A stretch of DNA of 63,166 nucleotides, filler included, from an uncultured archaeon (GCA_903842985.1; 5 parts of 5 records of this genome joined end to end with filler, not necessarily neighbours in it); one strand, 5' to 3'. Numbered from the whole stretch's first letter, positions 26,368 to 42,858 are shown. Numbers and translations: made by a program. Notes: generated by a model from the sequence alone, not told the origin.

Positions 26368-26461
26368 GGTTTAATGGAAATGTAGGTGGTTTATAAAGGT
26401 TTTTGTTCGTAAAATATAAATACTCCAATATATGCAATTATAGTAATCCGTACTTATAAAA

Positions 26462-27958: not shown

Positions 27959-27960
27959 TC

Positions 27961-28200: not shown

Positions 28201-28407
28201 TTTGCCTCCATTTATAACAATTTATAATAAAATATAATGAAGTATTATTTAAACCTTTCGCTGAGTAAAACGAAGATGTTGGCAAAACCCCTTATTTATA
28301 AAGGATAGGGCTGGAAAACCCTGGAAAAACCGAAAGGTTTATAAATAAGTTATTGCTTCTATGTTACTATTACTTAGTAAGTAAATAAAAGGGGGATAAA
28401 AACAAAA

Positions 28408-28776
28408 ATGAGTAAAACAAACAAAATCGGAAAACTGGGATTAGCTGGGTTGTGTTTAATTGGAGAACTGGCTTATGGATGCGCTGCAAACTCGCAGGCA
28501 GTCAGAAATCATAATTGGATAAATAATCCGCCTGCAAATTGCGCAGTTGGTGTTGGGGAGTCAACCAGCATGAGCGTAGCAAAATCCAAGGCAAGATTGG
28601 ATGGAACAACAAAACTTTTGCAAAAGCAGGGCAATTGCAGATACGAATTGCCTGAAGGCGGCATAAACGAAAAATGCAATGGAGTTTTGTATGGTGTGCA
28701 GAATAAGGAGAACTACACTCAAATTGGCGATTCTATAACTTTAATCTATTCGCTTATGTGCCTGGACAAACAATAA
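28408..28776 (+). CDS. Putative Cys-rich lipoprotein
   Basis: Signal peptide ending AYGC; W...AVGVG motif. Confidence 0.7.
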   Translation: MSKTNKIGKLGLAGLCLIGELAYGCAANSQAVRNHNWINNPPANCAVGVGESTSMSVAKSKARLDGTTKLLQKQGNCRYELPEGGINEKCNGVLYGVQNKENYTQIGDSITLIYSLMCLDKQ

Positions 28777-28778
28777 AA

Positions 28779-29165
28779 ATGGAAACGCAATCAAAATCAA
28801 ACATGGAACAGGTATTCAGGGACATGAGAGACTTGAAGACAGTTTCCCTGCAGGAAGAGATCAAGGACATTGAATTGCTTATCAACAAGAGAGACATTCT
28901 TCACGCAGATATTTTCAATGATATTGAAGCAGTAAAGACAATGCTCAAGAACCATGAGTTTGAGGCTATGACAAACCCAAGCGCTGATTCAAAGCAGGTT
29001 TCTGAAATAAGAAAGAAGGGAATCGAGCTTGAAGAGCTGAAGGTCCAGGAAAAACTTAACCATTGGAGAGATGTTGCTGAGCTGAAGAAAGAGCTCAGGG
29101 AAATGGTAAAGGAAGCAAGAGATGCTGAGAACAAGTCAAATATTCTTGATTCATTGATGGAATAA
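28779..29165 (+). CDS. Coiled-coil protein coupled to the ATPase
   Basis: Charged helical ORF ending 2 nt before the ATPase start. Confidence 0.8.
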   Translation: METQSKSNMEQVFRDMRDLKTVSLQEEIKDIELLINKRDILHADIFNDIEAVKTMLKNHEFEAMTNPSADSKQVSEIRKKGIELEELKVQEKLNHWRDVAELKKELREMVKEARDAENKSNILDSLME

Positions 29166-29167
29166 AA

Positions 29168-31048
29168 ATGAACATAACAATGCTGACAGTCGAGGAAATG
29201 TGCAAGAAGCTCAGGCCTGTCTTCGGCAAAAAGATAGACTTGATTTACCTGAAGTACACAGTGGCTGACAGCATGGAAACAAGAAGGGAAATTGAGATGA
29301 TGCTCAATGTTCTTTACCAGAAGCACATCAACGAAAATGTTCTTAACGAGAAGGTTCTTTTGGAGCCGCCGGCAGAGGACTTGATAAGCGGCGAATATCC
29401 GCTTGGAAAGGTTGTCTACGCTGACAGCGAAATATGCACATTCGGCTTGAGGGAGCAGGACTGGCCAAGGCACATCTGCGTCTCAGGAATGAGCGGTTCA
29501 GGAAAGACAAACTTTGCTTATGTTATCCTAGGAAATTTCATACTGCAGAAGAAGCCATTTATTGTATTTGACTGGAAGAAAAGCTTCAGACCACTGCTTC
29601 TTGCAGACGAAAAAATAATGCTCATAACAGTCGGCAACGAAAGAGTTGCCAACATGTTTAAGACAAACATAAACAAGCCGCCAAAGGGAGTCAGCCCAAG
29701 GGAATGGATAAACCTCCTTTGCGACCTGATTAACGATGCGTTCTTCGCAAGCTTCGGAGTTCACAAATTGCTGACAGAAGCGCTTGATGAAAGCTTCAAG
29801 GAATTCGGAGTCTACGAAGGCTCTGAGAATTATCCTACATGGCTTTATGTGAAAGAGAAGCTGATTGCAAAAGAGGAAACGCTGAGGGGAAGGGAAGCAG
29901 AATGGCTGGCATCAGCAGTCAGAATAGCGCATGCATTGACATTCGGCGCATTTGGCGACGCTTTGAACAGCAATGACAGGGATGTCTTGACAGTTGATGA
30001 TTTGCTTGACAAGAGTGTTATTTTCGAATTAGATTCACTGAACAATGCAGAGAAGAAATTCTTCTGCCAGTTCATGCTCACATTTGTTTACAAGATTAAG
30101 AAATACAACAGGAAAGGTGAGGATTTCAAGCACGCAATACTTGTTGACGAAGCGCACAATATTTTCCTGAAAGACAGGCCTTCATTCACAAAAGAAGGGA
30201 TAACCGACATGATTTACAGGGAGATAAGGGAGTACGGGACATCATTAATTTGTTTGGACCAGCACATCTCAAAGCTGAGCGACGTTGTCGCGGGAAACTC
30301 TGCATGCAACATTGCATTCCAGCAGGTTCTGCCGGCTGATGTCGAATGTGTATCCTCAATAATGCAGCTGAAGGACCACAGGAATTTCTTTTCAATGCTT
30401 CCGGTTGGACAGGCAATTGTAAGACTGGCTGAAAGGCATTACAAGCCATTCCAGATACAGGTGCCGGCTGTAAATCTGAAGCACAAGGAAGTCTCTGATG
30501 AGTTTGTTGCAGAAAGGACAAGAGAGCTTGTAAAACAGTACAAGAAAGTCAAATTGTTCGAGAACGGCTGCAATGAGTACGAACTGAAGAAGAAGCTGGA
30601 GAAGCTTGACGGGCTCTACAAGCATACATGCGTTGAGCCGAATGAGGAGTTTTTGAAGAGGCAGATTGAAGCAGAGCAGAAGATTGAATCAAAGCCTATT
30701 GAGTTCAAGAAGCCTGACTGGATGAAGGAGCATGAAAAAATACAGAAAGAGAAGAATAAAATCTTCGGCCAGAACAGGGAATCACAGCTTTCACAACTAT
30801 CACGCTTAATAAAATTAAACAACACACAAAAACAAGCCTTGCAAACCATAAAAGAAAACTCTAATTTAGAGATTTCTAAAATCTATAAATTGCTAAGCTT
30901 ATCAGCCCGCAAAGGAAATGAGTTAAAAAAACAGTTTATAGAGCAAGGATTAGTAGATGTAGAAGAAGAGAGAAACGCAAGTGGATGGAAAAAGTTTTTA
31001 CGCCCAACTAGCATGGCTCTGAATCTACTCTCGGAAAACGTCTCTTAA
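29168..31048 (+). CDS. HerA/FtsK/VirB4-superfamily ATPase with C-terminal winged-helix-like tail
   Basis: Walker A GMSGSGKT, DWK, Walker B ILVDEAH, EIREYG, LPVGQAIV. Confidence 0.88.
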   Translation: MNITMLTVEEMCKKLRPVFGKKIDLIYLKYTVADSMETRREIEMMLNVLYQKHINENVLNEKVLLEPPAEDLISGEYPLGKVVYADSEICTFGLREQDWPRHICVSGMSGSGKTNFAYVILGNFILQKKPFIVFDWKKSFRPLLLADEKIMLITVGNERVANMFKTNINKPPKGVSPREWINLLCDLINDAFFASFGVHKLLTEALDESFKEFGVYEGSENYPTWLYVKEKLIAKEETLRGREAEWLASAVRIAHALTFGAFGDALNSNDRDVLTVDDLLDKSVIFELDSLNNAEKKFFCQFMLTFVYKIKKYNRKGEDFKHAILVDEAHNIFLKDRPSFTKEGITDMIYREIREYGTSLICLDQHISKLSDVVAGNSACNIAFQQVLPADVECVSSIMQLKDHRNFFSMLPVGQAIVRLAERHYKPFQIQVPAVNLKHKEVSDEFVAERTRELVKQYKKVKLFENGCNEYELKKKLEKLDGLYKHTCVEPNEEFLKRQIEAEQKIESKPIEFKKPDWMKEHEKIQKEKNKIFGQNRESQLSQLSRLIKLNNTQKQALQTIKENSNLEISKIYKLLSLSARKGNELKKQFIEQGLVDVEEERNASGWKKFLRPTSMALNLLSENVS

Positions 31049-31150
31049 AGACCGGAAAACCCATTCAATTGAATTGGTTTTTGATAGATTTCAGTAGATT
31101 TAATTCTAACAAAACAAGGGAAAACCCTGTTTAATGAAAGGAGAACCTTT

Positions 31151-31399
31151 ATGATTAGTTTTAACATTGGAGAAATAGGAAGTGCTTTTGCTGTTACAGT
31201 CGCACTTATGCTTATTTTGCCGTATAACACCGAAGTCTGGTGCAACATCGTGTCCGCAGTCACTCCCCTTGTCTGCCTTGTTATCTACAAAGCAGCTTTA
31301 AGGAATTTCGTGACAAAAAGAAGGCAAAAATACATGATTATTTTGATTGAATATGTTGTTGTAATTCTTATCTCATTGTTTGTAAGGTTTGCAAAATAG
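31151..31399 (+). CDS. Array ORF, membrane protein
   Basis: GAAAGGAG SD; hydrophobic. Confidence 0.7.
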   Translation: MISFNIGEIGSAFAVTVALMLILPYNTEVWCNIVSAVTPLVCLVIYKAALRNFVTKRRQKYMIILIEYVVVILISLFVRFAK

Positions 31400-31412
31400 T
31401 AAAGGAGGTAAC

Positions 31413-31856
31413 ATGTTGTACATAATTGGAGGTATTGTCATATCTCTGTTTTTGCTTTTTGTCCTGTATGAAATCGGCGGCATCTCTGACCCTGCGTTCA
31501 GGAAGCTTGTGAGGTCTTTGAGGTCCAACAATCTCAGCAAAACTGATCTTGAATTTGATATCGGGGCATGGCAGCGGATAGCAGAACGCAGGAAAGCGCA
31601 AATGGCAGAGGATGAAAAGAAGAGAGGGGTTTTGAAAAGCATAGTTGGCTTAATCATGTTCATCGCGGCACTTGCCCTACTTTTCCTGGAAAAGTACTAC
31701 ATCTCATTCTGTTTATGTCTTATTGGCGGCGGATACATTTTGTGGCATTCAATCATTGGGCCGTATCTGGGGAAAAGACAGAATGGAGGGATAGCCAGGT
31801 TTTTGAAGGAAATCCGCGATGACTTCCGGGGATTCAGGAACGGCAAAAACAAGTAG
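31413..31856 (+). CDS. Array ORF, membrane protein
   Basis: AAAGGAGGT SD; three TM segments. Confidence 0.75.
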   Translation: MLYIIGGIVISLFLLFVLYEIGGISDPAFRKLVRSLRSNNLSKTDLEFDIGAWQRIAERRKAQMAEDEKKRGVLKSIVGLIMFIAALALLFLEKYYISFCLCLIGGGYILWHSIIGPYLGKRQNGGIARFLKEIRDDFRGFRNGKNK

Positions 31857-31889
31857 GTTTAAACTTTTAAACACGAAAGGAGAAGCAAG

Positions 31890-32294
31890 ATGGAGTCTAT
31901 TTTAATATTTGCAGTAGTTATTCTCGGACTCTCCGGTGCAGTACTCGCGGTCATTTTTGGCGCGATTCTGAGTTGGGACTGGAACCTCATTGTTGTGGCA
32001 GCTTCGGTCGCTTCAGCAATATCATACTGCCTGAACATCTTCATGATTCACCGGATTTTGCGCGTGCCAAGCAATCCCTCAGAAACACAAAAGCTCGTTA
32101 TCGGCACTCTGAACCTGATGTTCTCTGCTCCGTTTGGTTTCTTTCTGCTGTTATCCATTACGTGCAACGAAATAATATTCTTTGTTCTGCCTGGCCTGAT
32201 ATTCACTTCATTAATTCTTTCCAAGATTTGGAGAGGTGCTTCAAAAGAAGAACCTGAGCCAAAGCATTTCAATGGCGCTCTATCTGTCAATTAA
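31890..32294 (+). CDS. Array ORF, membrane protein
   Basis: GAAAGGAG SD; about four TM segments. Confidence 0.75.
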   Translation: MESILIFAVVILGLSGAVLAVIFGAILSWDWNLIVVAASVASAISYCLNIFMIHRILRVPSNPSETQKLVIGTLNLMFSAPFGFFLLLSITCNEIIFFVLPGLIFTSLILSKIWRGASKEEPEPKHFNGALSVN

Positions 32295-32364
32295 TGTTTT
32301 CTCAAAACGGCAAAAACCATTCGGAGTTACGGAGTTAATTCTTTTATAAATGAGGAGGTGTGAG

Positions 32365-33024
32365 ATGTTTGACTCGATTTACATTTATATCTTAGCGATT
32401 GTGATTGGATTAATCGGGCTTTTAATATTCTTCATAATTGGGCATCGGCATCCAGCTTGGGCATTATTTATGGCGATTGTGTCATGTGTATTAATCCTGT
32501 GCGGGCTAACTGGCATAGGACTCTGGCACGATCGTCGCACTGAACCCCAATTTTGCCCTGTCCTTGGACAGCAACTCGAGAGCCCGAACCTGCCTCTTGC
32601 TTCACTAACTCCAGAAAGGGCACTCGAGCTGGCGTGGAACCTTCCCCGTTTAGTGTACTCCGGCCAGATGTCACTGAACCAGTATGTTGTTCGCCCCTTC
32701 AGGCCATTTGCCAGGGTATGGCTTTCGGACAACGCGGACTTATTCCTAATAAGTTTTATCTACAATGACATCGGTGAAGAAGGCCTCACTGACGACGACC
32801 AGTTTGTTTACGCATTTTCGCTGCCTGGCGACGAACGCATCCATGTGATTGAAACCAATCCAGTAAGCGGAAGCAGGTTCCATGTGTATAAAGACGCACC
32901 TGGTCCTGAATACAAAACAACCAGCGTGAAAAACCTGCAGAAGAAGCAGCTCTTTGCCGAGAACCTGCGCGCAATCGCATTATACCTTCTCGAGCAGGAG
33001 CTGGCGGCGAAAGCCAAGAAATAA
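32365..33024 (+). CDS. Array ORF, two N-terminal TM helices plus soluble domain
   Basis: AGGAGGTG SD. Confidence 0.75.
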   Translation: MFDSIYIYILAIVIGLIGLLIFFIIGHRHPAWALFMAIVSCVLILCGLTGIGLWHDRRTEPQFCPVLGQQLESPNLPLASLTPERALELAWNLPRLVYSGQMSLNQYVVRPFRPFARVWLSDNADLFLISFIYNDIGEEGLTDDDQFVYAFSLPGDERIHVIETNPVSGSRFHVYKDAPGPEYKTTSVKNLQKKQLFAENLRAIALYLLEQELAAKAKK

Positions 33025-33091
33025 TTTTCACAACAGCCGAAAGGCGATTACATAACCTTTAATTGTTTTTTTCGATAAATAAGGAGGTTGA

Positions 33092-33208
33092 ATGCGCAAC
33101 TTCTTAAAAAAAATCTGGGACGCCTGTGGAGGCATAATCTTCATTCTCATCTTTTTTGCGATATGTATCAGCTGGGCGTTGATTTTTGGCCTTCGTTTGT
33201 CTAAATAA
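33092..33208 (+). CDS. Array micro-ORF, 38-aa single-TM peptide
   Basis: AAGGAGGT SD; MRNFLKKIWDACGGIIFILIFFAICISWALIFGLRLSK. Confidence 0.6.
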   Translation: MRNFLKKIWDACGGIIFILIFFAICISWALIFGLRLSK

Positions 33209-33276
33209 CGTCCACAAGCTTCGGCTTGATTGAATAACAACGAATCTTTTTCTCTTAACAAAGAAAGGAACGCTGA

Positions 33277-33759
33277 ATGAATGATAAGATAAAAGGGGCA
33301 AAAGCAGAAGAGAAGTCTCTCCAGGAGCTTGAAGCGCTGAACAGACTTCAGAGTTATCTTTCACCTTGCCACCAGGATGCGTTCGCCGCAATTATTGCTG
33401 ACTTGAAATTGCTGATTGAAAACGGCATAATCGATGCTGATGTTGTGTTGGACATCATCGTGCTGACGCGAGTTACCTGCGAGCTCATTATTGCAACCGG
33501 CAATGCCCAGGCGCCTAAAATCGTACAGGAAAAGGCTGACGAATTCATGGCCCTCTCCAATGCTGCTGAAGGAAAAATTGCGGAATGCATCAAAACCATC
33601 CAGAACTCCCCCAACGCCGTCACGCCGTCACAAATGATTCTCAAGGTAAGGACGCTCAACGAGACGATAATCGGCATGATGATGATTGTAAAGAGGGCGG
33701 TTGATGCGTATTTAGATCAGCCCGACAGTCTGAATCAGCGCCAGCCTTCTACGATGTAG
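33277..33759 (+). CDS. Array ORF, helical soluble protein
   Basis: AGAAAGGA SD; 160 aa. Confidence 0.7.
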   Translation: MNDKIKGAKAEEKSLQELEALNRLQSYLSPCHQDAFAAIIADLKLLIENGIIDADVVLDIIVLTRVTCELIIATGNAQAPKIVQEKADEFMALSNAAEGKIAECIKTIQNSPNAVTPSQMILKVRTLNETIIGMMMIVKRAVDAYLDQPDSLNQRQPSTM

Positions 33760-33777
33760 CTGATTTCATTTTACCAG

Positions 33778-33886
33778 GAGGCCCTCCCGTATACCCTTTC
33801 CTAGTGCGCTCTGGCTCAAACAACTCCTGCTGGAATTCAGATCGAAGCTGGGAGCACGCACTTGCAAGAAAGCGGGGAGGGCCCTC
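33778..33886 (+). repeat. Long intergenic hairpin H1
   Basis: GAGGCCCTCCCG...CGGGGAGGGCCCTC with paired interior. Confidence 0.8.
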
Positions 33887-33958
33887 GCCAATTTATTCAG
33901 CCATCTGAGGCTTGACATAGAATTGGTTAATCTAAAATTAAACGAAAGGAGGTGAAAA

Positions 33959-34252
33959 ATGAAGAAGAAGAAAGAAAAAGAACCCAAGCAACTCCTGCGC
34001 GAAGCGCTGGATTTGCTGGACAAAAATGCCCCTGCCATTGAGTCGATAGTAAAGCTTGCTGATGCGTTGGGGATAGTGTTTATGAAAGAGGTTGAATTGA
34101 GAAAGCGCGAAATGATGAAAGATGCTAAAAAGCGAGGAGCTGACAAGGACCAACTCTGCCTTATCAACACATTTTCCACCCACTTCATCATCAATGCTAT
34201 GGCACGGGAGACAATAGCGCGGATTGAAACGGATGGAATTCTTCCCAAATGA
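33959..34252 (+). CDS. Array ORF, soluble protein
   Basis: GAAAGGAGGTGA SD. Confidence 0.75.
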   Translation: MKKKKEKEPKQLLREALDLLDKNAPAIESIVKLADALGIVFMKEVELRKREMMKDAKKRGADKDQLCLINTFSTHFIINAMARETIARIETDGILPK

Positions 34253-34261
34253 TTTTCTTAC

Positions 34262-34323
34262 GGAGGGCCTTGGTTTCCTCTGCACAAAGACTCCCTATCT
34301 TTGGCAGGATTCCAGCGCCCTCC
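34262..34323 (+). repeat. Long intergenic hairpin H2 (terminator-like)
   Basis: GGAGGGC...GCCCTCC then TTTCCTTT. Confidence 0.8.
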
Positions 34324-34398
34324 TTTCCTTTAGCAACAACGCGAAAGCGTTTAACATATAATCAATTTTTCCTTTAACCTCTCAACGAAAGGAGAGCC

Positions 34399-34650
34399 AT
34401 GAAAGCAAAGAACAAGGAACTTAGCTACACGACGAGCAAAGGTGTGTTTGTTTCAGTTGTTTTGGAAGGATGCGTCGTGACCATCTCCAGCCGCGGGATT
34501 AATAAAAAATTCGAAATCGTCAAGAGCGACGACATCGCTACGGCCTGGGATCGTATCCAACAAATCTCGAAAAACGAAAAAATGAATCAGCAAGACATCC
34601 TTTTTGAAATCGACGAACTCGTCGATTGCAAACCCATCCATCTCGCGTAA
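34399..34650 (+). CDS. Array ORF, soluble protein
   Basis: GAAAGGAG SD. Confidence 0.7.
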   Translation: MKAKNKELSYTTSKGVFVSVVLEGCVVTISSRGINKKFEIVKSDDIATAWDRIQQISKNEKMNQQDILFEIDELVDCKPIHLA

Positions 34651-34713
34651 TGAATAGGTGAGCCGCCGGGAATTTAGAAATCAGCAAGCATCCGGGTAAG
34701 TAATTCATTTTAC

Positions 34714-34779
34714 GGGAGCGCCTTGGGAGTATGGGGTTGGGCTGAGGATGCACGTATTCATCAGATCCTAAGGCCTCCC
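34714..34779 (+). repeat. Long intergenic hairpin H3 (terminator-like)
   Basis: GGGAGCGCCTTGGGA...TCCTAAGGCCTCCC then T6. Confidence 0.8.
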
Positions 34780-34854
34780 TTTTTTAAGGCAACAACAGCT
34801 GAAAAGCGTTGACATAAAAAAACAAATCTTATTTTCATAAAAAAGGAGGTGAGC

Positions 34855-35061
34855 ATGGTGGCGTCTTTTGTTATTATTACTGTGATTTTTCTTGCCTCAT
34901 TTGCCGGCCTATACCTATACGGGATTTGCGATTATGCCTGGGGGCAGTGGATTTTGATCGCGGACGCAGTCGCAGCCACAATCTTTTTCTCTTATGACTT
35001 TTATCGCTGGCTTATCAAGCCGCCGATAAAAGACAAGGAAGGAGAAGAAAGCCATGATTAA
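34855..35061 (+). CDS. Array ORF, two-TM protein
   Basis: AAAGGAGGTGA SD. Confidence 0.75.
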   Translation: MVASFVIITVIFLASFAGLYLYGICDYAWGQWILIADAVAATIFFSYDFYRWLIKPPIKDKEGEESHD

Positions 35062-35194
35062 ATTTTACAAAATCGACGGCAAGCATGCCTGCGTTCAGCT
35101 TTCTGAGAATGTTGAGTGGGCTGACATAAAGGTGAGCGTTTACAAGGTAGTCATCGCTTTCCTATTCATCTTTCTCCTGGTATTTCTTGTTTAA
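35054..35194 (+). CDS. Array micro-ORF, 46-aa tail-anchored peptide
   Basis: AAGGAG SD; overlaps the previous stop; hydrophobic C-terminus. Confidence 0.6.
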   Translation: MIKFYKIDGKHACVQLSENVEWADIKVSVYKVVIAFLFIFLLVFLV

Positions 35195-35231
35195 AATTCT
35201 TCAAAATAAGCTTCTTTGAAAGGAGGCAACA

Positions 35232-35867
35232 ATGAAAAAGGTTTTTTTAATTCTGTTTCTGATTATCTTCGCGGTGTGCCTGGCAATTTCCGCCGCTTCT
35301 GTTACATCAGCTCCGCCGGCTGGACTGAAGGAACTGCATGACTTCCTGGGGGTACCTGCCACAGCCAAGGGCTACGGGAAAACATACGGCCACGAAACAA
35401 TGCTGGCGATTGCTGCAAAATACGAAAACGTAGACAAACGGCCGCAGCTCATAGCCCTTCTTGTCGGCACCGGCAGGGAACCTACGCAGGCGATAAAGAA
35501 AGCGCAGGATTACGCCAGGCAGGCTGCTCTCGTCAGAACCACCACATTTAGTGTTATTTCAATCCGCGTGGCTTCGCTGGCTGTGGTTCTGGGCATGATG
35601 GCAATCATCATGGCAATCGTCTGCTTTTACGTGCTTCTGGGATTTTTCTACCCGCTCGTCAACAGGTACGAAGTCATTCACAGGCCCGGTCCGGCGTATG
35701 CCATTGGCATTGTTCTTTCCATCTTCCTTATTGGAGTCCTGCTCACAGGCAGCTTGAAGGTGTATGGTGCATTATTTGTCTCGCTTGTGCTTGTGACCAC
35801 CCTTCTCGTTTTCATAAGGCGGGAGCATTTTCCAGAAGGCCCGCAGAGAATCAATCCATTCAGTTAA
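35232..35867 (+). CDS. Array ORF, signal peptide plus three TM helices
   Basis: GAAAGGAGG SD; 211 aa. Confidence 0.8.
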   Translation: MKKVFLILFLIIFAVCLAISAASVTSAPPAGLKELHDFLGVPATAKGYGKTYGHETMLAIAAKYENVDKRPQLIALLVGTGREPTQAIKKAQDYARQAALVRTTTFSVISIRVASLAVVLGMMAIIMAIVCFYVLLGFFYPLVNRYEVIHRPGPAYAIGIVLSIFLIGVLLTGSLKVYGALFVSLVLVTTLLVFIRREHFPEGPQRINPFS

Positions 35868-35896
35868 TCGGATTTAACCCTAACAAGGAGGCAGTA

Positions 35897-36082
35897 ATGC
35901 AAGAGACAAAAGTTGATTTCAATGAGATGGTCGACGAAATTCGCAGCGAGCAAACCAACACAGAATCCGGCAAGGGTTGCTCTTATGGTGAAGGGCCGTT
36001 CAAGAAAAAGAAACAGCACTTCCACAAAAAGCCGGTCCAGATCAGGAGAAAGTGCAACCGCTTCAACGGGTTTCGAAGGTAG
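35897..36082 (+). CDS. Array ORF, small protein with basic C-terminus
   Basis: AAGGAGG SD. Confidence 0.65.
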   Translation: MQETKVDFNEMVDEIRSEQTNTESGKGCSYGEGPFKKKKQHFHKKPVQIRRKCNRFNGFRR

Positions 36083-36160
36083 ATTTTTCCGGAGGGGCTA
36101 AGTCGAGGGACAATAGAATGAAAGGAGGATAGACTATCGACAAAAGATGATTGAACTACT

Positions 36161-36251
36161 GGGGAGCCTGGTCCTACCAAAAAAATGGTGATCCTCTCAC
36201 CAGAGGTTAAGTGATTCACACCCACTATACCTCAGTATAGCCAGGCTCCCC
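36161..36251 (+). repeat. Long intergenic hairpin H4
   Basis: GGGGAGCCTGG...CCAGGCTCCCC. Confidence 0.85.
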
Positions 36252-36291
36252 TCTTATAAAAAATTCAACCCTTGTGAAAGGAGAAAGGCAT

Positions 36292-36546
36292 ATGAAAAAA
36301 TTTGTGGCATTTGTGATTCACTTTTACGCCGCTGTTTTCTGCTTTCTGCTTCCCGTCTTCGCCTTAGTCGGTTTCATACTTTACATTACTGCCCCGGAAT
36401 TCCAGCCGCCGCCTATGAAGATTCTGTTTCCAACTGCAGTTGTTTTCATTCTGCTGAGCTATTTCTGGGCGAAAATCTCAGAGCGGCTTCTTGAACATCG
36501 CCTCGCTAACTGCCTCGAGCGCTGGTCGCCCGGCTACATGCAGTGA
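36292..36546 (+). CDS. Array ORF, two-TM protein
   Basis: GAAAGGAG SD. Confidence 0.75.
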   Translation: MKKFVAFVIHFYAAVFCFLLPVFALVGFILYITAPEFQPPPMKILFPTAVVFILLSYFWAKISERLLEHRLANCLERWSPGYMQ

Positions 36547-36628
36547 CTTTTTCAGGCAGCGGAATGGCAACAAGGAACAAACAAATGAAAGGAGGATAAC
36601 TTATAGCCTGAATCCTAAGTACCTCTCC

Positions 36629-36704
36629 GGGGAGTCCTGGTTCGGCCCGTATAGGTATCATGCCCACCAAGCATTGACGCCTGTCTTACCAGCCAGGACT
36701 CCCC
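36629..36704 (+). repeat. Long intergenic hairpin H5
   Basis: GGGGAGTCCTGG...CCAGGACTCCCC. Confidence 0.85.
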
Positions 36705-36747
36705 CTCTTTTAAAAAATTCAACCCTTTATTTTTGAAAGGAGAAGAT

Positions 36748-37080
36748 ATGAAAGATGTAAAACTCAAGATTAAGCTCGTTCTCTTTTACGTGCTTTTCTG
36801 CCTGGCAATCCTGGTCATTACCTGCGCCCCCGGCATCATCTTCGCTTCGCTGGCTTCGCTGTGGGTGCTGCCTGTGCTCGTCCAGCACGCCCCGGACCGT
36901 CTGCTGTTCAGCATCCTCTTCAACCCGATGATTTTCTTTTTCCTGCTATTCGCCACATTCAACTGGTTTTGGTGGTCGCGCCAGCTGGTCGAGTGCCTAA
37001 TAAGTGACCTGGACGACCGCTCCAGATGCATTGACCGGCTCGAGCACCGTATCAAGCAAGGCGCGCAGGACAGCGTGTAG
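36748..37080 (+). CDS. Array ORF, membrane protein
   Basis: GAAAGGAG SD. Confidence 0.75.
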   Translation: MKDVKLKIKLVLFYVLFCLAILVITCAPGIIFASLASLWVLPVLVQHAPDRLLFSILFNPMIFFFLLFATFNWFWWSRQLVECLISDLDDRSRCIDRLEHRIKQGAQDSV

Positions 37081-37095
37081 CGAAACAATATTCCG

Positions 37096-37175
37096 GGAGA
37101 GCCCTGTCTGTCTTGCTTAAGAGAGCATGCTGCCTTCATCAGTATGCTCCCCTCCTCTCGGCAGCAGGGCTCTCC
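37096..37175 (+). repeat. Long intergenic hairpin H6
   Basis: GGAGAGCCCTG...CAGGGCTCTCC. Confidence 0.85.
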
Positions 37176-37257
37176 TTCATTTAGAAAACAATCGCTAAAA
37201 TGCGTTGAGATAAAATAAATCAAAATTTTTTACTCTCATAAAAGGAGGTGACAAATC

Positions 37258-37449
37258 ATGGAATCTATTTTAAAATCTCTCTTAATAGGTCTCGGCCTCG
37301 AAAAATTCGGGTGGAATGAAGTCATTGCTCTCATCGTCCTTTCAGCTGTCATAGCTGTTGTATGGTGGATAAAGAATATTTTTGAAAAAAGAAATAAGAA
37401 ACGAAATGAAAGTAAGAAGGAAAACAAGGTGAAAGGAGGTGAAACATGA
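37258..37449 (+). CDS. Array ORF, single-TM protein with basic tail
   Basis: AAAGGAGGTGA SD. Confidence 0.75.
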   Translation: MESILKSLLIGLGLEKFGWNEVIALIVLSAVIAVVWWIKNIFEKRNKKRNESKKENKVKGGET

Positions 37450-37640
37450 AGAAAGCAACCGCCAAAATAATTACTGACATTCTTTCATCCCTGCTTGTCT
37501 TATCGACGATAGCACTTTGCACAAACAAGTGGGTAATTCCCCTGTTTCCAGAGCGCTTTTTCCCACTTTTTCTCTTCTTTAATTTTATGGATATATGCTT
37601 CCTTCTCGGATTTTCCTGGGGTAAGAGCGTGAAGGACTGA
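37446..37640 (+). CDS. Array ORF, two-TM protein
   Basis: GAAAGGAGGTGA SD; ATGA overlap with the previous gene. Confidence 0.75.
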   Translation: MKKATAKIITDILSSLLVLSTIALCTNKWVIPLFPERFFPLFLFFNFMDICFLLGFSWGKSVKD

Positions 37641-37676
37641 AACCATCATTTAAATCTTTGAAAGGAGGTGATGCAA

Positions 37677-38000
37677 ATGTTCAAGCTCAAAGAAATTACA
37701 CCCATCCAACTCATGATTGTTATTGCCGCTGTCCTGTTCCTGGCCATAATTACCGTCGCTGGTCTCGGGAAGGATACCGATCGCGGCAGGCAGTTGAACA
37801 TGGCAAAAGAAGTCAGTCTCGCAGTAAAATATGAATTCACTGGGTTTGACCCCATGAATGTTAAAGACAAAGGTGATTGCCTGGGGTCTGGAATGGTTGC
37901 AGCTGACTTCAACGGCGACGGCAAACCGGACATCGCATTAGTTACTGGTTGTCACATAATCACTTTGCTCGAAAACAAGATGCCTGCGCCCGGAAAATAA
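37677..38000 (+). CDS. Array ORF, TM anchor plus a single FG-GAP/VCBS-like motif
   Basis: GAAAGGAGGTGA SD; AADFNGDGKPDIAL. Confidence 0.8.
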   Translation: MFKLKEITPIQLMIVIAAVLFLAIITVAGLGKDTDRGRQLNMAKEVSLAVKYEFTGFDPMNVKDKGDCLGSGMVAADFNGDGKPDIALVTGCHIITLLENKMPAPGK

Positions 38001-38028
38001 AAAATTTAAGTGGAAAGGAGGTGATAAA

Positions 38029-38226
38029 ATGTATAAGGTATTTCGCTGTCTGTGTGGATTGCTGCGTTTGAACGAGTTTGAGATGATTCAGATATTGAGA
38101 TGGCTGCGTTTTAACGAGTTCAACCAGATGATGAGAGCGAAGATCGAAGCAGCAGAAGGCCGTAGGTTTTCGGACGAGGAATGGAAGCGGATGTGCCGAG
38201 TTCAAGTCGATTATAAACGGAAATAA
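38029..38226 (+). CDS. Array ORF with internal LR(L/F)NEF repeat
   Basis: GAAAGGAGGTGAT SD. Confidence 0.7.
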   Translation: MYKVFRCLCGLLRLNEFEMIQILRWLRFNEFNQMMRAKIEAAEGRRFSDEEWKRMCRVQVDYKRK

Positions 38227-38246
38227 AAGATGCGCTCTACATTTAC

Positions 38247-38327
38247 AGGGCCCCTTCAGCAGAAGCCAAAAGGTTAGATAATTGGATATCCTAAACCTTA
38301 TTGTTATGGCAGAGCTGGAGGGGTCCT
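38247..38327 (+). repeat. Long intergenic hairpin H7
   Basis: AGGGCCCCTTCAGC...GCTGGAGGGGTCCT then TAATTTTT. Confidence 0.85.
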
Positions 38328-38406
38328 TAATTTTTGGAAACAATTGCCAAGTGGCGTTTGAAATAAATCAAAATAATTTTTTAACTTTTAAAAAGGAGAC
38401 GTTTGG

Positions 38407-38478
38407 ATGATAAAAATCATAGTTTTTTTAATAGTCATCGGAGCAGTCTACGTTCTTTCAAGGGAATGGGGAAAATGA
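38407..38478 (+). CDS. Array micro-ORF, 23-aa TM peptide
   Basis: AAAGGAG SD; MIKIIVFLIVIGAVYVLSREWGK. Confidence 0.5.
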   Translation: MIKIIVFLIVIGAVYVLSREWGK

Positions 38479-38525
38479 AACGTTGCAAAAGGGTTTTCAA
38501 AAGCTTAAATAGAAAGGAGGTGAAT

Positions 38526-38696
38526 ATGGCAGATGGCGAAAAAAAGATTTGGGTCGAACTCAAGGTCAGGGTGCTCGCGTCTGAATCAGAGCTGAATGAC
38601 AAAACCAAGGAAATGGGCAGCCTTCACACCCAGGCTATCAATGCCTTCGCCGGGAACGTGGTCGAGACAAGCATCACAATGAAGCCAAATGAATAG
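38526..38696 (+). CDS. Array ORF, small soluble protein
   Basis: GAAAGGAGGTGA SD. Confidence 0.7.
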   Translation: MADGEKKIWVELKVRVLASESELNDKTKEMGSLHTQAINAFAGNVVETSITMKPNE

Positions 38697-38861
38697 AAAG
38701 GAGCCGACAATGCATCGGAACAGATCACCTACTGTTTGAGTCTGCTTAGGAATTGTCTTCCTGGGCCTGGCAAGAACATCTAACAAGGAGGAGCCTATCG
38801 GAGTGAACTAAACTTTGTTCCAGAAGATTATTGCAGAGGGTTTTCAAAGACACACAACGCC

Positions 38862-38917
38862 GAGTCCGGGGGATTGCTTTATTCTTTCGTGGCTGAAGGA
38901 ATAGCGCCCCCGGGCTC
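38862..38917 (+). repeat. Long intergenic hairpin H8
   Basis: GAGTCCGGGGG...CCCCCGGGCTC. Confidence 0.8.
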
Positions 38918-38996
38918 ATTTTAATATCGAGGAGGTGATTGCAGACAGAGAAAATTTCGGCAGGGGCTTTGAAAATTTAAAAGGAAAGGAGCTGCC

Positions 38997-39125
38997 ATGG
39001 GATTTTATGCAGTCATTGTTGGGATTATATTTATTGTCATTTTGGCTGCACGGTATGATTACAAGCATGAGAAGAAGAAGAAACAGCAGCCAGGCGAGGA
39101 ACAGAAGAAAGGAGGCACAATATAA
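38997..39125 (+). CDS. Array micro-ORF, 42-aa single-TM peptide
   Basis: GAAAGGAG SD; MGFYAVIVGIIFIVILAARYDYKHEKKKK... Confidence 0.6.
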   Translation: MGFYAVIVGIIFIVILAARYDYKHEKKKKQQPGEEQKKGGTI

Positions 39126-39415
39126 TGATGATATTAAAAATTTTTATTTTCATCATCATTCTGTTTATTTTCGCAGTAGATGCCGTTGCCTATTCAATTT
39201 TCCGGAAATTTGATATATCAATCCATCCGGATCTAAACATGGACAAGACATTCGCGACTATGTTTATCGGACTTGTTACTATGCTGATGCCATTTCTTCT
39301 CATTGACTGCTTTATACAGGTCTCTTTTTGGTATTTGGTCATCGCTGCTTTCGTGATTTTTTTGGTTACTGCAGACCAGGTCTATTTACTCTACAAGCAC
39401 GGCGAGATACCTTAA
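39125..39415 (+). CDS. Array ORF, three-TM protein
   Basis: GAAAGGAGG SD; TAATG overlap. Confidence 0.75.
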   Translation: MMILKIFIFIIILFIFAVDAVAYSIFRKFDISIHPDLNMDKTFATMFIGLVTMLMPFLLIDCFIQVSFWYLVIAAFVIFLVTADQVYLLYKHGEIP

Positions 39416-39884
39416 CTCAGAAGGTAATCTTCAACAAATATGAAAGGAGGCGAACATTGCTAATCTATCCTTCATTCGCTTTGGTTTCAACTGTCGTGGA
39501 CAAGCCGTTTTTTAACAGCTACCGGGCTGGCGAAGTGAAGCAGAAGTTCTGCAGCAGATGTTGGTGGGCGGAAAAAGAAATGTTTGAGTGGGGCAGAGCA
39601 CCTCCGTCTGTGGCAACTGCATTAACCCATCGGTCTTAACCCGGCGCTCAAATGGAGGAATTCATTATGAGCCCAACAATCATCGGCCTGAGGGTCACAT
39701 AAGACACCTGCATATGTCTTAGTGGCCACATCGCGTGAGACCAAACCCCTGGAAACAGGAGGAGGTTCAATGGTTGGCAGGAATTTTCTCTAGCGTTTTA
39801 ATCAAACATTTCTAAAATCACTGAATCAAAACAATCCTGAAAAAGGAAAGAGCAGAAATCTCTGCTGGCTGTTTAAACAGCGTC

Positions 39885-39951
39885 GGAGTCCTGGGGGAGT
39901 GAGTTTCCTTGGTTTCGGTGGGCGGTTACAAGGTACCTCCTCCAGGGCTCT
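39885..39951 (+). repeat. Long intergenic hairpin H9
   Basis: GGAGTCCTGGGGGAG...CTCCTCCAGGGCTCT. Confidence 0.8.
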
Positions 39952-40033
39952 GCTTAAATTCGAAAAAAATCGTCAATAAAGTTGGTGTTTAGATATTAAA
40001 TTTCAATTAAAGAACCTTAACAAGGAGGTGAAC

Positions 40034-40144
40034 GTGTGGCTGAAGATTATTGTCGCAGTAGTTTTGGCAGCGCTGTTTATTTTCATCGGCTGCTCCGCGT
40101 TCAAGCACCTGAATGACAAGAGATACACGTGCAAGGACGAGTAA
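40034..40144 (+). CDS. Array micro-ORF, 36-aa TM/lipoprotein-like peptide
   Basis: AAGGAGGTGA SD, GTG start; MWLKIIVAVVLAALFIFIGCSAFK... Confidence 0.6.
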   Translation: MWLKIIVAVVLAALFIFIGCSAFKHLNDKRYTCKDE

Positions 40145-40175
40145 CCGGCGGTTTTAAAATGAAAGGAGGTGAAAC

Positions 40176-40502
40176 ATGGATATTTTAGATATTACAGACA
40201 AGATTCTTCCAGTCCTCGCGATTTTACTGGTATCAATGATAGTGGGCGCTATCATCGTCTGGCTTGTCAGGTTTCTTGATAAGATGTTTCTTCCATCCGG
40301 ATCTAAGATCAAGGATGGCTTCGTTCAGCCAAGGGGTATAGAAATCAAATGCGAAGATGTCGACCTCGACGGCAAGTATGAAACATTTCTTGTCATCAAC
40401 AAGCTGCGCTATTCCCTCAAAAAAAGCCCTGAAGGCGCCGCTTACCTCGAAATGTTCGACATCAAATTGGTTCCAGTGGGCACTGAGCAGATTAAAACAT
40501 AA
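40176..40502 (+). CDS. Array ORF, TM anchor plus DxDxDG motif
   Basis: GAAAGGAGGTGA SD; EDVDLDGKYET. Confidence 0.8.
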   Translation: MDILDITDKILPVLAILLVSMIVGAIIVWLVRFLDKMFLPSGSKIKDGFVQPRGIEIKCEDVDLDGKYETFLVINKLRYSLKKSPEGAAYLEMFDIKLVPVGTEQIKT

Positions 40503-40521
40503 TAACTTCTGTTCTTTTTCA

Positions 40522-40561
40522 AAGAGTCTCTTCTCGTCTGGGAGATTAGACTCTTCTTTTT
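40522..40561 (+). terminator. Intrinsic-terminator-like hairpin closing the array
   Basis: AAGAGTCT...AGACTCTT followed by CTTTTT. Confidence 0.65.
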
Positions 40562-40674
40562 ACCTATTTATTTACAATATAGAAAATATAACTGAATCTA
40601 TGTACTGCAAAACAAAAAAATTTATAAATGAATCAAAACCACCAAGCTAATCTTATTTCGGGGGGTGTTTAGTA

Positions 40675-41187
40675 ATGGAAGAGGTAATAGAGAATACAGT
40701 TAGCAATCGGCTCAGCGACATTGAAAACGAAGTTAAGAATTCTTTCAAAACAATATGCGAGGAATTTGAGGACCATCTCGATGCAATAAACGAGAACACA
40801 GAAGAGCTCAACGAGCATTCAGCTGCATTGGGAGAGCTCGACGATAAAATCGGAAAGCTGAATGAAAGGATGGATGACCTGTTCATGATGATAAGGCAGC
40901 TGGCAAAGCCGCAGTTTTCGCTTTCAGATGCGGAAAAGAGAGTGTTTATGGTGCTTTATTCTGTAGAGAACACTCCTGTTTCTTATTCAGATATCGCAAG
41001 GAAGACAGACATGACAGAGCTTGCAATCAAGGCTCACATTTACGCGCTGATCAACAAGGGCGTGCCAATAATTGCAAGAAGAATAGACAGCAATCCTTAC
41101 TTTAAGCTTGAAAAAGGCTTCAAGGAAAGGCAGGCAAAGGAGAATTTTATTCAGGTCGAGGAAGCAATTGTAAAGGAAGTGTGCTAA
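40675..41187 (+). CDS. Coiled-coil plus winged-HTH protein
   Basis: Heptad-rich N-terminus; LSDAEKRVF...SYSDIARK...LINKGVPI. Confidence 0.85.
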   Translation: MEEVIENTVSNRLSDIENEVKNSFKTICEEFEDHLDAINENTEELNEHSAALGELDDKIGKLNERMDDLFMMIRQLAKPQFSLSDAEKRVFMVLYSVENTPVSYSDIARKTDMTELAIKAHIYALINKGVPIIARRIDSNPYFKLEKGFKERQAKENFIQVEEAIVKEVC

Positions 41188-41467
41188 ACTCACTTTGTAT
41201 ATATTGGCTCATTCCTAGAGGCCTGGGCAGTAATTCATAACCTTGATCATAAAGAAGCGCGTTTATAACAAGCCCAACTGTGCCTTTTTCTCCGCGAGGA
41301 ATGACTTTTTTTCTTTGCATTTCATCGTTTACAAGCCCAGCAAGTTCTTGTTTTACATCCTGGCAGCTTATGACTATTGGATTTTCGTACTTCTCTAAGA
41401 AACTTAAAACTATGTCTGTTACACTTTCCCTCACTTCTCGAGGCAATCTGTCAATTGTTTCGTACAT
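41147..41467 (-). CDS. Hypothetical protein
   Basis: 106-aa ORF. Confidence 0.6.
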   Translation of the reverse strand: MYETIDRLPREVRESVTDIVLSFLEKYENPIVISCQDVKQELAGLVNDEMQRKKVIPRGEKGTVGLVINALLYDQGYELLPRPLGMSQYIQSEFSTLPLQLLPRPE

Positions 41468-41790
41468 TTCAGAAAATATTCATATAGAAAAATATATAAT
41501 CTTTTTGTTTTATTTATTTATAATATTGAAAATATTATTCCTCTATATCTCACTTCATCTATTGATTAATGAGTAAATTACTATACTGGTATACTAAACT
41601 GATATTTAACCATAAATAACGTCTTTATGCTGGTTAAATCATTAAATTAAAATATAATGCCGACAATAATCCAACATTATAACAACAAAATATAATCCCG
41701 AATCTAGTCGATAACAACCCGAAAAAACAATAAAAATGTGAGAGCAATAACTAATTAAATCTATCAGAGCTTAAAAGATTTAAGCAAATC

Positions 41791-42300
41791 TTAAACATTT
41801 TCTTCAACTCTTTTCTCATTTACTGTCTGCTTAATCTTCTCGTTCTTGAGCAATTTCTGCAATTCCTGCACATATTTCTGCGTTGTCTGCAAATTGTTGC
41901 TAACCATCTGCATTGCCTTCTCAAATGCGCTGTCAAGTGTCGATCCATTCAGCTTGTACCCAATAATCACTTTGCCGTCCTTGATGTAGCTTGTCTTGTT
42001 TATCAGCTGCAAATCAAGCCACCGCTTCAGGTAGTCATACATTGTCTGCCTTGTAATCCCTGCAAAAATCCCCATTTCCTCGACGGTCATCACAGCTGCC
42101 TCTGGCTTCTTCTCCTTGTTTGCCATCTTAGATCTCTCGTACATCTCAACAAAAACGCTGTGCATCTTTTCAGTGCTCCCTGTCTTTCTCGGCTCCAATC
42201 CTATTCTTGCCAGGATAACTCTTGCGAGCTCTTCTGAGCTTGGGCTCAGTCCTGGTTCGTGGTTTGTCAGAACAACTTTCATCTTCTTTAGTTTATTCAC
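41791..42300 (-). CDS. Winged-HTH DNA-binding protein
   Basis: MTVEEMGIFAGITRQTMYDYLKRW; GAGGTGA SD-like sequence near the start. Confidence 0.85.
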   Translation of the reverse strand: MNKLKKMKVVLTNHEPGLSPSSEELARVILARIGLEPRKTGSTEKMHSVFVEMYERSKMANKEKKPEAAVMTVEEMGIFAGITRQTMYDYLKRWLDLQLINKTSYIKDGKVIIGYKLNGSTLDSAFEKAMQMVSNNLQTTQKYVQELQKLLKNEKIKQTVNEKRVEENV

Positions 42301-42858
42301 CTCATTTTATTCGACAATTGCGCCAGGCAGTTGCCTGACGTTTTTATGTCGATTACTGTAAACTATAATATCGAATCCGTTTAAATATTCTGCGACAATT
42401 TGTCCAGTGTCCAGTGGAAAACATTTGATTTTTGACTAAATTATTTAATCAAAACAAATTGCAGAGCCAGGAAGCCAACAAATGCGCCTAACCCATATAT
42501 AATCCATTCCAAAAAAGCCAAAACAAGACAAAAATTTCTTCTGGAAAAAAACATTCGGCAAGATTCCGTCTTGTCGTGCATAATTCCAGAAACTCGCGTC
42601 TTTCAACTAGTTTGCATCCATCGGGGGGGCTTCCACGAAGAACCCAGATGAACTTATTTGTCGGCATCTTTCTTTACACGTCGAAACAATGCCGACCATG
42701 TCAAATGAAATGCACGAATCAGGCCTTTCACAGCAAATCCCTGAAAACATAGTTCTACTGTGTTTGTAAAGCAAAATACCTGAAAGATATACCAAGATAT
42801 GCAAATCATGCATTTTTTACAATAAAATACTTTAATGGGCTAAGCCAGGATTTGCATT

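Follow-up and report, generated by a model that had tools for sequence, protein, structure and literature searches.

What is a run of short, unrecognizable genes, all on one strand and nearly all led by a long Shine-Dalgarno (SD) sequence, doing among the core genes of an archaeal contig? The run lies at positions 31151-40502 of a 63-kb stretch of DNA (the window), in which five contigs (C28, C29, C31, C33 and C36) of a metagenome-assembled genome (MAG) stand end to end with runs of N between them. A first-pass annotation had proposed a gene depot that was captured from a bacterial, candidate phyla radiation (CPR) or phage source, or tuned for a bacterial ribosome. We find instead an array native to the archaeal chromosome: it is embedded there, varies between strains and consists of short ORFans, mostly membrane proteins. 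It is physically tied to a conserved accessory module of DPANN archaea, a coiled-coil protein together with a HerA/VirB4-type ATPase that carries a winged helix.

The genome (G000) comprises 60 contigs and 879 kb, with 92.65% completeness and 1.64% contamination. Paired 44-N runs at window 13027-13126, 23423-23522, 47152-47251 and 59036-59135 mark the contig joins, and neighbourhood across them carries no meaning. The entire array lies within a single 23.6-kb contig, C31 (window 23523-47151), whose left end carries AMMECR1, a Na/Ca exchanger, RNA polymerase subunit L (RpoL) and an rRNA/protein methyltransferase and whose right end carries SRP54, all of them archaeal core genes. Both junctions do, as first annotated, lead into archaeal-type genes inside one contig, and the label of a DPANN contig is borne out by an archaeal 16S gene in the bin (1396 bits) and by the homologues of the ATPase, which are labelled Woesearchaeota, Nanoarchaeota or Nanoarchaeia in their source databases. 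The array belongs to an accessory island of about 17 kb (27.7-44.9 kb), which also holds a toxin-antitoxin pair, the ATPase, helix-turn-helix (HTH) regulators and small open reading frames (ORFs).

The array, its strain variants and the ATPase module

With starts picked by SD match, the array consists of 25 plus-strand ORFs of 23-219 aa, and 20 of the 25 products have at least one hydrophobic segment (a 19-residue window in a crude Kyte-Doolittle test). The description of about 25 small, one-directional and unrecognizable ORFs therefore stands, as no product could be placed in a known family. Pfam gave only sub-threshold or repeat-level matches (a single FG-GAP repeat in ORF 17), NCBIfam gave one chance-level match and nothing meaningful for the 25 proteins, and PHROGs gave no match for the 24 ORFs submitted (the 23-aa ORF was left out). 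Profile searches of the island proteins found no integrase, transposase or capsid, again as first reported, and Rfam at E values up to 1 had no match in window 31000-40700.

Comparison with the same locus in an independent MAG of the same genus (L002), whose ATPase is 95% identical in protein and 90% in DNA, separates what is kept from what is exchanged. The two loci are collinear at 82-93% nucleotide identity over window 26110-31145 and again over 40512-42836, but between these conserved junctions L002 has 3.4 kb where the window has 9.4 kb, and homology between the arrays is confined to five short patches of intergenic DNA and to the last two or three genes. The patches of homology end at an SD or start codon (34858, 37251) or begin there (39106). 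Homologues of two of the boundary hairpins described below, E4 and E6, lie in L002 at 13885 and 14355, with different genes behind them in each strain. A strain from a second study (run X5) has 646 other nt in place of window 40191-40522 (ORF 25), keeping the beginning of ORF 25 with its SD as well as the HTH gene beyond it, and 215 nt in place of window 34487-34777 (part of ORF 8). In another lineage, L025 and L026 are collinear at 76-79% around an array of 2.3-2.7 kb and have one repeated 90-nt pre-gene element in common. The ratio of nonsynonymous to synonymous substitution (dN/dS) is 0.46 for ORF 22 and 0.42 for ORF 23, the only two array genes matched in L002 by this comparison, or about 0.44, against 0.065 for the ATPase. 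Strains thus swap their ORFs but keep the boundary elements and the two junctions, and the earlier picture of a modular, fast-evolving gene depot is supported.

Because L002 keeps both junctions and the run X5 strain keeps the flank, the array is not an assembly artefact. The case against chimerism, which had been raised as a concern, rests on these two relatives. In runs X1-X3 (one study, possibly the source sample) identical contigs of 200-500 nt cover flanks and array at about 1-3x with no step, although among these short contigs no piece is shown to bridge 31050 or 40600.

Directly 5' of the ATPase gene is that of its 135-aa coiled-coil partner (28758-29165, plus strand). The ATPase itself (29168-31048, plus strand; 626 aa) is a P-loop protein of the HerA/VirB4 superfamily (DUF87, PF01935) with a C-terminal winged helix. 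Its AlphaFold model has a predicted local distance difference test score (pLDDT) of 82, with HerA 4d2i, VirB4 4ag6 and DndH 7es4 as best Foldseek matches, and consists of a DUF87 core plus a winged HTH at about residues 550-622 (pLDDT 84-91 over residues 551-620); by clade the protein is closest to HerA/VirB4 rather than FtsK. More than 1000 DPANN members of the family were found, at about 50% identity and on contigs as long as 1 Mb. A coiled-coil homologue (28-83% identity) adjoins the ATPase in 12 locus ids and accompanies it wherever a locus was examined, with L002 and L009, the same place in the same genome, both counted among the 12.

The prediction that equivalent arrays with unrelated ORFs would stand at orthologous ATPase loci is supported in other DPANN lineages. 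In L003, L004, L025, L045 and G002, runs of small, SD-led, largely membrane-protein ORFs on the same strand abut the coiled-coil/ATPase pair upstream or downstream, and at 28 ATPase loci 135 SD-led ORFs are on the same strand and 50 on the opposite one. Across 48 loci, 321 of 397 SD-led ORFs are singletons, and the only widely recurring ones are coiled-coil and ATPase pieces. The larger neighbours at ATPase loci include surface proteins of lectin, PKD, CARDB and CBM type. For example, in L020 (2287-8085) the pair is preceded upstream by two proteins in tandem, each of about 960 aa and bearing Laminin_G_3/ConA-like lectin domains, and PKD/Big_9, CARDB, M64 peptidase and CBM96 proteins are found near the ATPase at other loci. 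A 241-aa protein of the ATPase-linked array in L045 (15157-15882) has a canonical bacterial-type prepilin N-terminal methylation motif (KGFTLIELLVV, PF07963), of which the N-terminus of ORF 17 is a degenerate form.

Two GGAAAACC boxes lie 6 and 71 nt past the ATPase stop codon, and the same box occurs within about 450 nt downstream of the ATPase in roughly 10 of roughly 30 loci. These boxes could be a recognition site of the ATPase. In all, GGAAAACC has nine copies in the window against 2.6 expected, including one at 28313, upstream of the coiled-coil operon; four copies fall within 117 nt of the methyltransferase gene, both in the window (27324-27440, minus strand) and in L002 (8540-8656).

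Unit boundaries and the ribosome-binding signal

ORFs 1-6 are closely packed. From 33760 on there are nine long spacers (146-394 nt), each with a GC-rich hairpin (E1-E9), and the distal two thirds of the array are at least nine tandem units. In each unit a GC-rich hairpin of 55-110 nt is followed by a T run, an AT-rich stretch, the motif [T]GAAAGGAGG(TGA) and one to four ORFs. As first windowed, six of the nine boundary segments had fold z scores from -3.7 to -6.8; re-windowed, E3 reaches -21 and E8 -35 kcal/mol. A strict criterion leaves five hairpins in the 9.47 kb, where the rest of the genome would predict 0.43. The boundary elements have no copies elsewhere in the genome, and GC-rich hairpins are also present within the arrays of L003 and L004. 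The stem bases resemble GGRGAGYCCTGG/CCAGGRCTCYCC, the 5' arm being SD-like and the 3' arm anti-SD-like. Folding energy gives a mixed picture by strand, with the plus strand favoured by E3, E7, E8 and E9 and the minus strand by E1, and E6 and its L002 copy show two wobble-preserving changes, too small a number to carry weight. A small AACnGC-loop-GCGTT palindrome 5' of the AT-rich stretch was dropped as a general boundary feature, being present in four of the nine elements only.

All of these elements are given on the plus strand. The left junction (E0, 31049-31150), which is 89% identical in L002, has a 26-nt palindrome and the two GGAAAACC boxes already mentioned (31054, 31119). E1 (33778-33886) is weak (z -0.85). 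E2 (34262-34323) folds at -33.9 kcal/mol (z -6.5), and its 3' arm is an exact CCCTCCTTTCC, complementary to the SD motif. E3 (34720-34774) is followed by a T run and AACAGCTGAAAAGCGTTGACAT. E4 (36161-36251; z -6.5), with the arms GGGGAGCCTGG/CCAGGCTCCCC and an L002 homologue at 13885-13987, has an orphan SD on its 5' side at about 36120, and E5 (36629-36704; z -6.8) has one at about 36587. E6 (37096-37175; z -5.2) is 92% identical to L002 14355-14479, where other genes stand behind it, and E7 (38247-38327) has a z score of -5.1. Behind E8 (38862-38917; -35.2 kcal/mol) comes an orphan GGAGGTGA at 38931 with no ORF of at least 20 aa, and E9 (39884-39953; z -3.7) lies within a 394-nt ORF-free spacer. 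The right junction (E10, 40503-40674) is kept in L002 at 86-90% identity. The three orphan SDs look like remnants of lost units.

An SD match of at least 6 nt to the complement of the genome's own 16S tail lies 2-9 nt from the start codon in all 25 array ORFs. Matches of at least 8 nt are found in 15 of the 25, against 12 of 801 non-overlapping ORFs of at least 100 aa outside C31, the start-picking rules for the two sets being slightly different. The motif GAAAGGAGGTGA occurs exactly six times, always on the plus strand and within the array, which agrees with the earlier description of a long SD on almost all ORFs with six perfect copies. Similarly, GGAGGTGA has ten sites in the window, all on the plus strand between 33948 and 40172 (shuffle mean 1.0). 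Genome-wide there are 18, ten of them in the array and one in the 16S gene itself, and only one of the remaining seven is an ATG-led gene start at normal spacing. The sole other good long-SD site in the genome is AAAAAAGGAGGTGAAAAAATG, on contig C14 (25236-25631), before a 127-aa membrane protein.

The interpretation of this signal as bacterial in type is not borne out. The genome's own 16S gene reads as GAUCACCUCCUUUAAC, which pairs with AAAGGAGGTGATC; its tail is ...GGATCACCTCCTTTAACAC, that of a same-genus relative ...CCTCCTTTAAAC and that of a same-order relative ...CCTCCTTTTTAC. As the gene runs on as CCUCCUUUAAC, 13 nt (AAAGGAGGTGATC) are complementary to native rRNA if the mature end reaches UUU, and the conserved AAA of the SD motif argues that it may well do so; a mature end at or beyond ...CCUCCUUU would give native pairing of AAAGGAGG. 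With 11-13 SD positions pairing natively, the array SD fits the archaeon's own ribosome and is no pointer to a bacterial origin. Neither sigma-70-like promoters (22 found, 22.4 expected) nor intrinsic-terminator-like sites (15 found, 14.0 expected) are enriched in the array, and a bacterial expression apparatus is not required by any evidence here. A long, bacterial-looking SD is a tempting misreading, since it can be wholly native where the archaeal 16S tail is CCUCCUUU.

One position of the motif stands apart. A G precedes AAAGGAG at 16 of 20 array sites, at 2 of 17 real gene starts in the rest of the genome and at 44 of 101 sites in other ATPase loci. The genome's own 16S and that of the same-genus relative both place an A opposite this leading G of GAAAGGAGG, where a tail ending CCUCCUUUC would place a C. 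Pairing with rRNA does not explain this extension of the motif, which is specific to the array, and a single G atop an 11-12-bp duplex is a poor basis for invoking a foreign ribosome.

What the array may be

With moderate confidence we favour a reading in which the array is a native, highly translated repertoire of small membrane proteins, exchangeable unit by unit, that works with or around the motor ATPase. Each unit would then be its own, highly translated transcription unit, with the AT-rich stretch as a putative archaeal promoter and the hairpin and T run as a putative terminator or mRNA-end stabilizer. The common boundary elements could serve as portable homology for the gain, loss and swap of units, and the outcome would be a fast-turnover repertoire of small membrane proteins. 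By analogy with the conjugation system considered below, these proteins would most likely belong to a membrane-anchored apparatus for contact with DNA or cells, which the adjacent ATPase would drive and which they would modulate or join as accessory subunits; alternatively, they may be variable surface or immunity factors at the symbiont-host-virus interface.

Several observations weigh against this reading. The large hairpins are not present among the first six ORFs, the conserved pre-gene element of L025 and L026 has no significant fold (z -1.3, +0.2 and -1.4), and the conserved G of GAAAGGAGG is unaccounted for by a native array. No small-protein family is conserved across arrays, which speaks against fixed structural subunits. 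The ATPase module is patchy, being present in 8 of 41 related genomes (6 of the 32 that are at least 90% complete), and this also fits a mobile element. The synonymous-codon score of the array, -0.035, falls at the 3.5th percentile of the ORFs in this genome (mean 0.101), and its tetranucleotide deviation ranks 11th of 180 windows; the genes may therefore be imported or very young. Finally, the roles given to the boundary elements are drawn from sequence, and a search of RNA runs found none that contains the stretch. Taken with the native codon usage of the flanking coiled-coil, ATPase and HTH genes (scores 0.125-0.136), the array genes look real, fast-evolving and compositionally young or imported, set in a native frame.

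The main rival, which we consider unlikely, is that the island in its entirety (about 17 kb) is a mobile element of DPANN that has integrated or decayed, be it a plasmid, an element resembling integrative and conjugative elements or a membrane-type virus, with the array as its ORFan cargo. Besides the patchiness of the ATPase and the atypical codon usage and k-mers of the array, the ParE toxin-antitoxin pair and three HTH genes of the island would suit such an origin. So would a same-family genome (G002) in which the ATPase is on another contig and the methyltransferase and SRP54, which flank the island here, are 0.74 kb apart; however, the methyltransferase there is in the opposite relative orientation, so this is not a clean empty site, and in G003, G005 and G006 the two genes are on separate contigs. 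Furthermore, the island has no integrase, replication, capsid or relaxase genes that could be found, the search for a plasmid or integrative context detected no replication or integration genes in island or MAG, and PF00589 has no match in the 92.65%-complete MAG. Codon usage is native in the genes for the ATPase, the coiled-coil protein and the HTH regulator, and homologues of the ATPase sit among core genes on contigs up to 1 Mb. For a provirus, PHROGs searched with 30 island and array proteins gave weak matches for four flank proteins and none for the 24 array ORFs, IMG/VR scans with the ATPase and then with a 24-sequence alignment found no relative, and the phage collection gave one match at 23% identity, on an unannotated 7-kb record; by these searches the island does not qualify as an archaeal provirus. 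A tyrosine recombinase does lie 3-5 kb from the ATPase in three of 12 loci scanned, but ribosomal protein genes separate the two in all three. In these loci (L031 4611-5997, L036 6024-7276, L042 5003-6270) the recombinase, of 277-279 aa, and a small 'Recombinase'-domain protein stand beside rpS9, 3-5 kb upstream of the ATPase pair; rpL13 is called in two of them, and L042 also has an adjoining DDE transposase. With no PF00589 match in G000, an enzyme of XerA type was not detected there either.

The other readings fare worse. That the genes were captured from bacteria, CPR or phage, or tuned for a bacterial (host) ribosome as cross-domain effectors, is very improbable: the leading G, which would pair with the C of CCUCCUUUC tails, the atypical codon usage and the bacterial-style pilin N-termini of ORF 17 and the L045 protein could be cited for it, but the native 16S already pairs with 11-13 positions, the base 5' of the conserved G is mostly T where a bacterial tail would predict A, promoters and terminators of bacterial type are not enriched, and GC content (44% against a 41% median) is only mildly atypical. 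Four array proteins searched in global protein collections had no bacterial, CPR or viral homologues, a collinear phage or IMG/VR match was sought and none was found, which does not back a phage source, and the ATPase is accompanied by the same kind of array across DPANN lineages. It is extremely improbable that the ORFs are largely spurious and the region non-coding DNA rich in repeats and hairpins. Most ORFs are without homologues, several are shorter than 50 aa and the three orphan SDs have no ORFs, but every one of the 25 has its SD at 2-9 nt on one strand, 20 products have hydrophobic helices, the in-frame codon score (-0.035) is above those of the shifted frames (-0.094 and -0.201), ORF 4 has a full-length homologue at 47% identity, and ORFs 22 and 23 have dN/dS values below 0.5. 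We give hardly any credence to an archaeal integron cassette array without integrase (CALIN), with the intergenic hairpins as attC sites, although the resemblance is real: short, one-directional ORFan units between imperfect palindromes of about 55-110 nt, the units varying by strain and the palindromes persisting. As far as the account of Ghaly et al. (2022, PMC9668308) extends, archaeal integrons exist and both integrons and CALINs are reported in MAGs of Nanoarchaeota in the GTDB sense. However, IntI (TIGR02249) and any tyrosine recombinase (PF00589) have zero matches in the 92.65%-complete MAG, whose missing part could still carry one, a core-motif search for complementary RYYYAAC ... GTTRRRY pairs 45-150 nt apart found none on either strand (shuffle mean 0.79), stems with GGRGAGYCCTGG/CCAGGRCTCYCC at their bases are long and perfect, many units have two to four genes and seemingly their own promoter-like region, and the array is linked to an ATPase rather than an integrase. 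By these tests the array is not an integron. Finally, we regard as quite improbable, though somewhat less so than capture, that the array is carried as cargo by a cassette system, as yet undescribed, which needs no integrase and is coupled to a DNA pump, an archaeal counterpart of the conjugative 'leading region'. In such a system the hairpin-promoter-GAAAGGAGG boundary elements would be sites of recombination and/or single-strand expression, the coiled-coil/HerA-winged-HTH motor would move array DNA, or DNA carrying the array, from symbiont to symbiont or to the host, and the extended ribosome-binding motif would serve expression or recognition outside ordinary native translation.

Returning to the favoured reading of a native, motor-linked repertoire, the system that serves best as a working analogy is that of Streptomyces TraB and the spd genes beside it. 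In the part of the literature represented by PMC4447253, TraB is a translocase with a C-terminal recognition helix, accompanied on each plasmid by 3-7 short, diverse spd genes in operons; for many of these no homologue can be assigned on other plasmids, and integral membrane proteins are found among the Spd products. Here too short, diverse genes in the same direction, many of them for membrane proteins, stand beside a ring-ATPase that belongs to the FtsK-HerA superfamily and has a winged helix at its C-terminus. The two-copy GGAAAACC box just behind the ATPase gene, a candidate site, may be likened to the clt repeats of TraB, an array of 8-bp repeats to which the winged helix binds. The differences are that the ATPase is nearest HerA/VirB4/DndH rather than FtsK, that the locus is archaeal and chromosomal with no rep, int or kor genes, and that, against the 3-7 spd genes of that account, it has 25 ORFs, hairpin-bounded units and an extreme SD. 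The leading regions of conjugative plasmids, described by Samuel et al. (2024, PMC11541004) and Shaw et al. (2026, PMC13478746) as 'establishment and anti-defence' islands with Frpo/ssi single-strand promoters, also resemble the array in their variable one-strand genes adjoining DNA-transfer machinery, their structured intergenic elements 5' of gene groups and their hints that efficient translation has been selected for. The likeness goes no further: no oriT, relaxase or known anti-defence gene was recognized at the array locus, the hairpins have no enriched -35/-10 pattern, and an archaeal RNA polymerase would be involved.

The crenarchaeal Ced DNA-import system likewise combines a HerA-like ATPase with small membrane proteins, and among NCBIfam models our ATPase best matches that of the Ced ATPase (NF053655; E 5.4e-17), with a score of 61.6 bits where the cut-off is 600. 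Ced identity was rejected, as the ATPase is far under the cut-off and there are no conserved CedA-type membrane partners; the membrane components of Ced are conserved, unlike the array proteins, for which NCBIfam offered nothing of note. HerA-containing anti-phage defence was also rejected: PADLOC called no system and gave only weak HerA or mad8 matches for the ATPase, and no Sir2, DUF4297, NurA-like or other effector was present among 14 island proteins. Phage 'morons' are self-contained promoter-gene-terminator units inserted in tandem between conserved genes and varying between relatives. The array has such tandem, variable units, but no phage context, and the promoter and terminator roles of its elements are putative.

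What is new here is the bounding of units by GC-rich hairpins of 55-110 nt and the array-specific extended motif GAAAGGAGG, and the finding generalizes into an undescribed feature of a DPANN accessory module; a full-text literature search on DUF87 in DPANN and on hypervariable small membrane proteins of Woesearchaeota returned nothing relevant. DPANN archaea are obligate symbionts with tiny genomes, and yet about 1% of the DNA here is kept as rapidly changing small membrane proteins. The motor ATPase to which these are tied is a conserved protein of many Woese- and Pacearchaeota but has never been the subject of a study. Should the link between the two be functional, the locus would be a concrete place to ask how DPANN cells touch, feed on and exchange DNA with their partners, and the array would be a second way, besides integrons, to organize exchangeable gene units.

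Individual ORFs and other features of the window

All array ORFs are on the plus strand. ORF 1 (31151-31399; 82 aa) has three hydrophobic segments and the SD AAAGGAG, ORF 2 (31413-31856; 147 aa) is a membrane protein with the SD TAAAGGAGGT, and ORF 3 (31890-32294; 134 aa) has four hydrophobic segments. ORF 4 (32365-33024; 219 aa) has two N-terminal transmembrane (TM) segments and then a soluble domain; its single homologue, 47% identical over the full length, is on an 18,773-nt contig, equal in length to, and taken as, the contig of a strain whose ATPase is 85% identical. ORF 5 (33092-33208; 38 aa) has one TM segment. ORF 6 (33277-33759; 160 aa) is largely soluble and helical and belongs to no family; in the ESM Atlas its best feature score was 0.89, under the lead bar of 0.9, and the structural rows had no named family.

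The hairpin-bounded part begins with ORF 7 (33959-34252; 97 aa), which is charged and has the SD GAAAGGAGGTGA, and ORF 8 (34399-34650; 83 aa), which is partially replaced in the run X5 strain. A four-ORF unit (34855-36082) follows, with ORF 9 (34855-35061; 68 aa), ORF 10 (35054-35194; 46 aa), ORF 11 (35232-35867; 211 aa), which had no homologue among 1.84 billion protein representatives, and ORF 12 (35897-36082; 61 aa). ORF 13 (36292-36546; 84 aa) has two TM segments and ORF 14 (36748-37080; 110 aa) three. The second four-ORF unit (37258-38226) comprises ORF 15 (37258-37449; 63 aa), ORF 16 (37446-37640; 64 aa), ORF 17 (37677-38000; 107 aa), with the pilin-like N-terminus and the one FG-GAP repeat, and ORF 18 (38029-38226; 65 aa); a global protein search found no full-length homologue of ORF 17. 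ORFs 19 (38407-38478; 23 aa) and 20 (38526-38696; 56 aa) occupy 38407-38696. Beyond them is a three-ORF unit (38997-39639) of ORF 21 (38997-39125; 42 aa), ORF 22 (39125-39415; 96 aa) and ORF 23 (39457-39639; 60 aa), and the array ends with ORFs 24 (40034-40144; 36 aa) and 25 (40176-40502; 108 aa) at 40034-40502.

At the left edge of the island, on the minus strand, are a ParE-type toxin (27695-27958; Pfam PF05016, 7.6e-07) and a DUF2683-like antitoxin (27961-28200; PF10884, 7.6e-05, under the cut-off). They are followed on the plus strand by a 122-aa protein with a hydrophobic, lipoprotein-like N-terminal leader (28408-28776; no family), just before the coiled-coil gene. On the right of the array, a 170-aa regulator with a coiled coil and an HTH (40675-41187, plus strand) has an 86%-identical copy in L002. 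Elsewhere in the window, Rfam places a tRNA (46 bits) at 2351-2438 that is absent from the ARAGORN output, and the adjoining tRNA-Lys (2238-2329) is 92 nt long; both tRNAs may contain introns. The start of contig C28 (window 1-60) is repeated at C4:473 of the same genome, on the minus strand, a repeat that the ends of these two contigs have in common.

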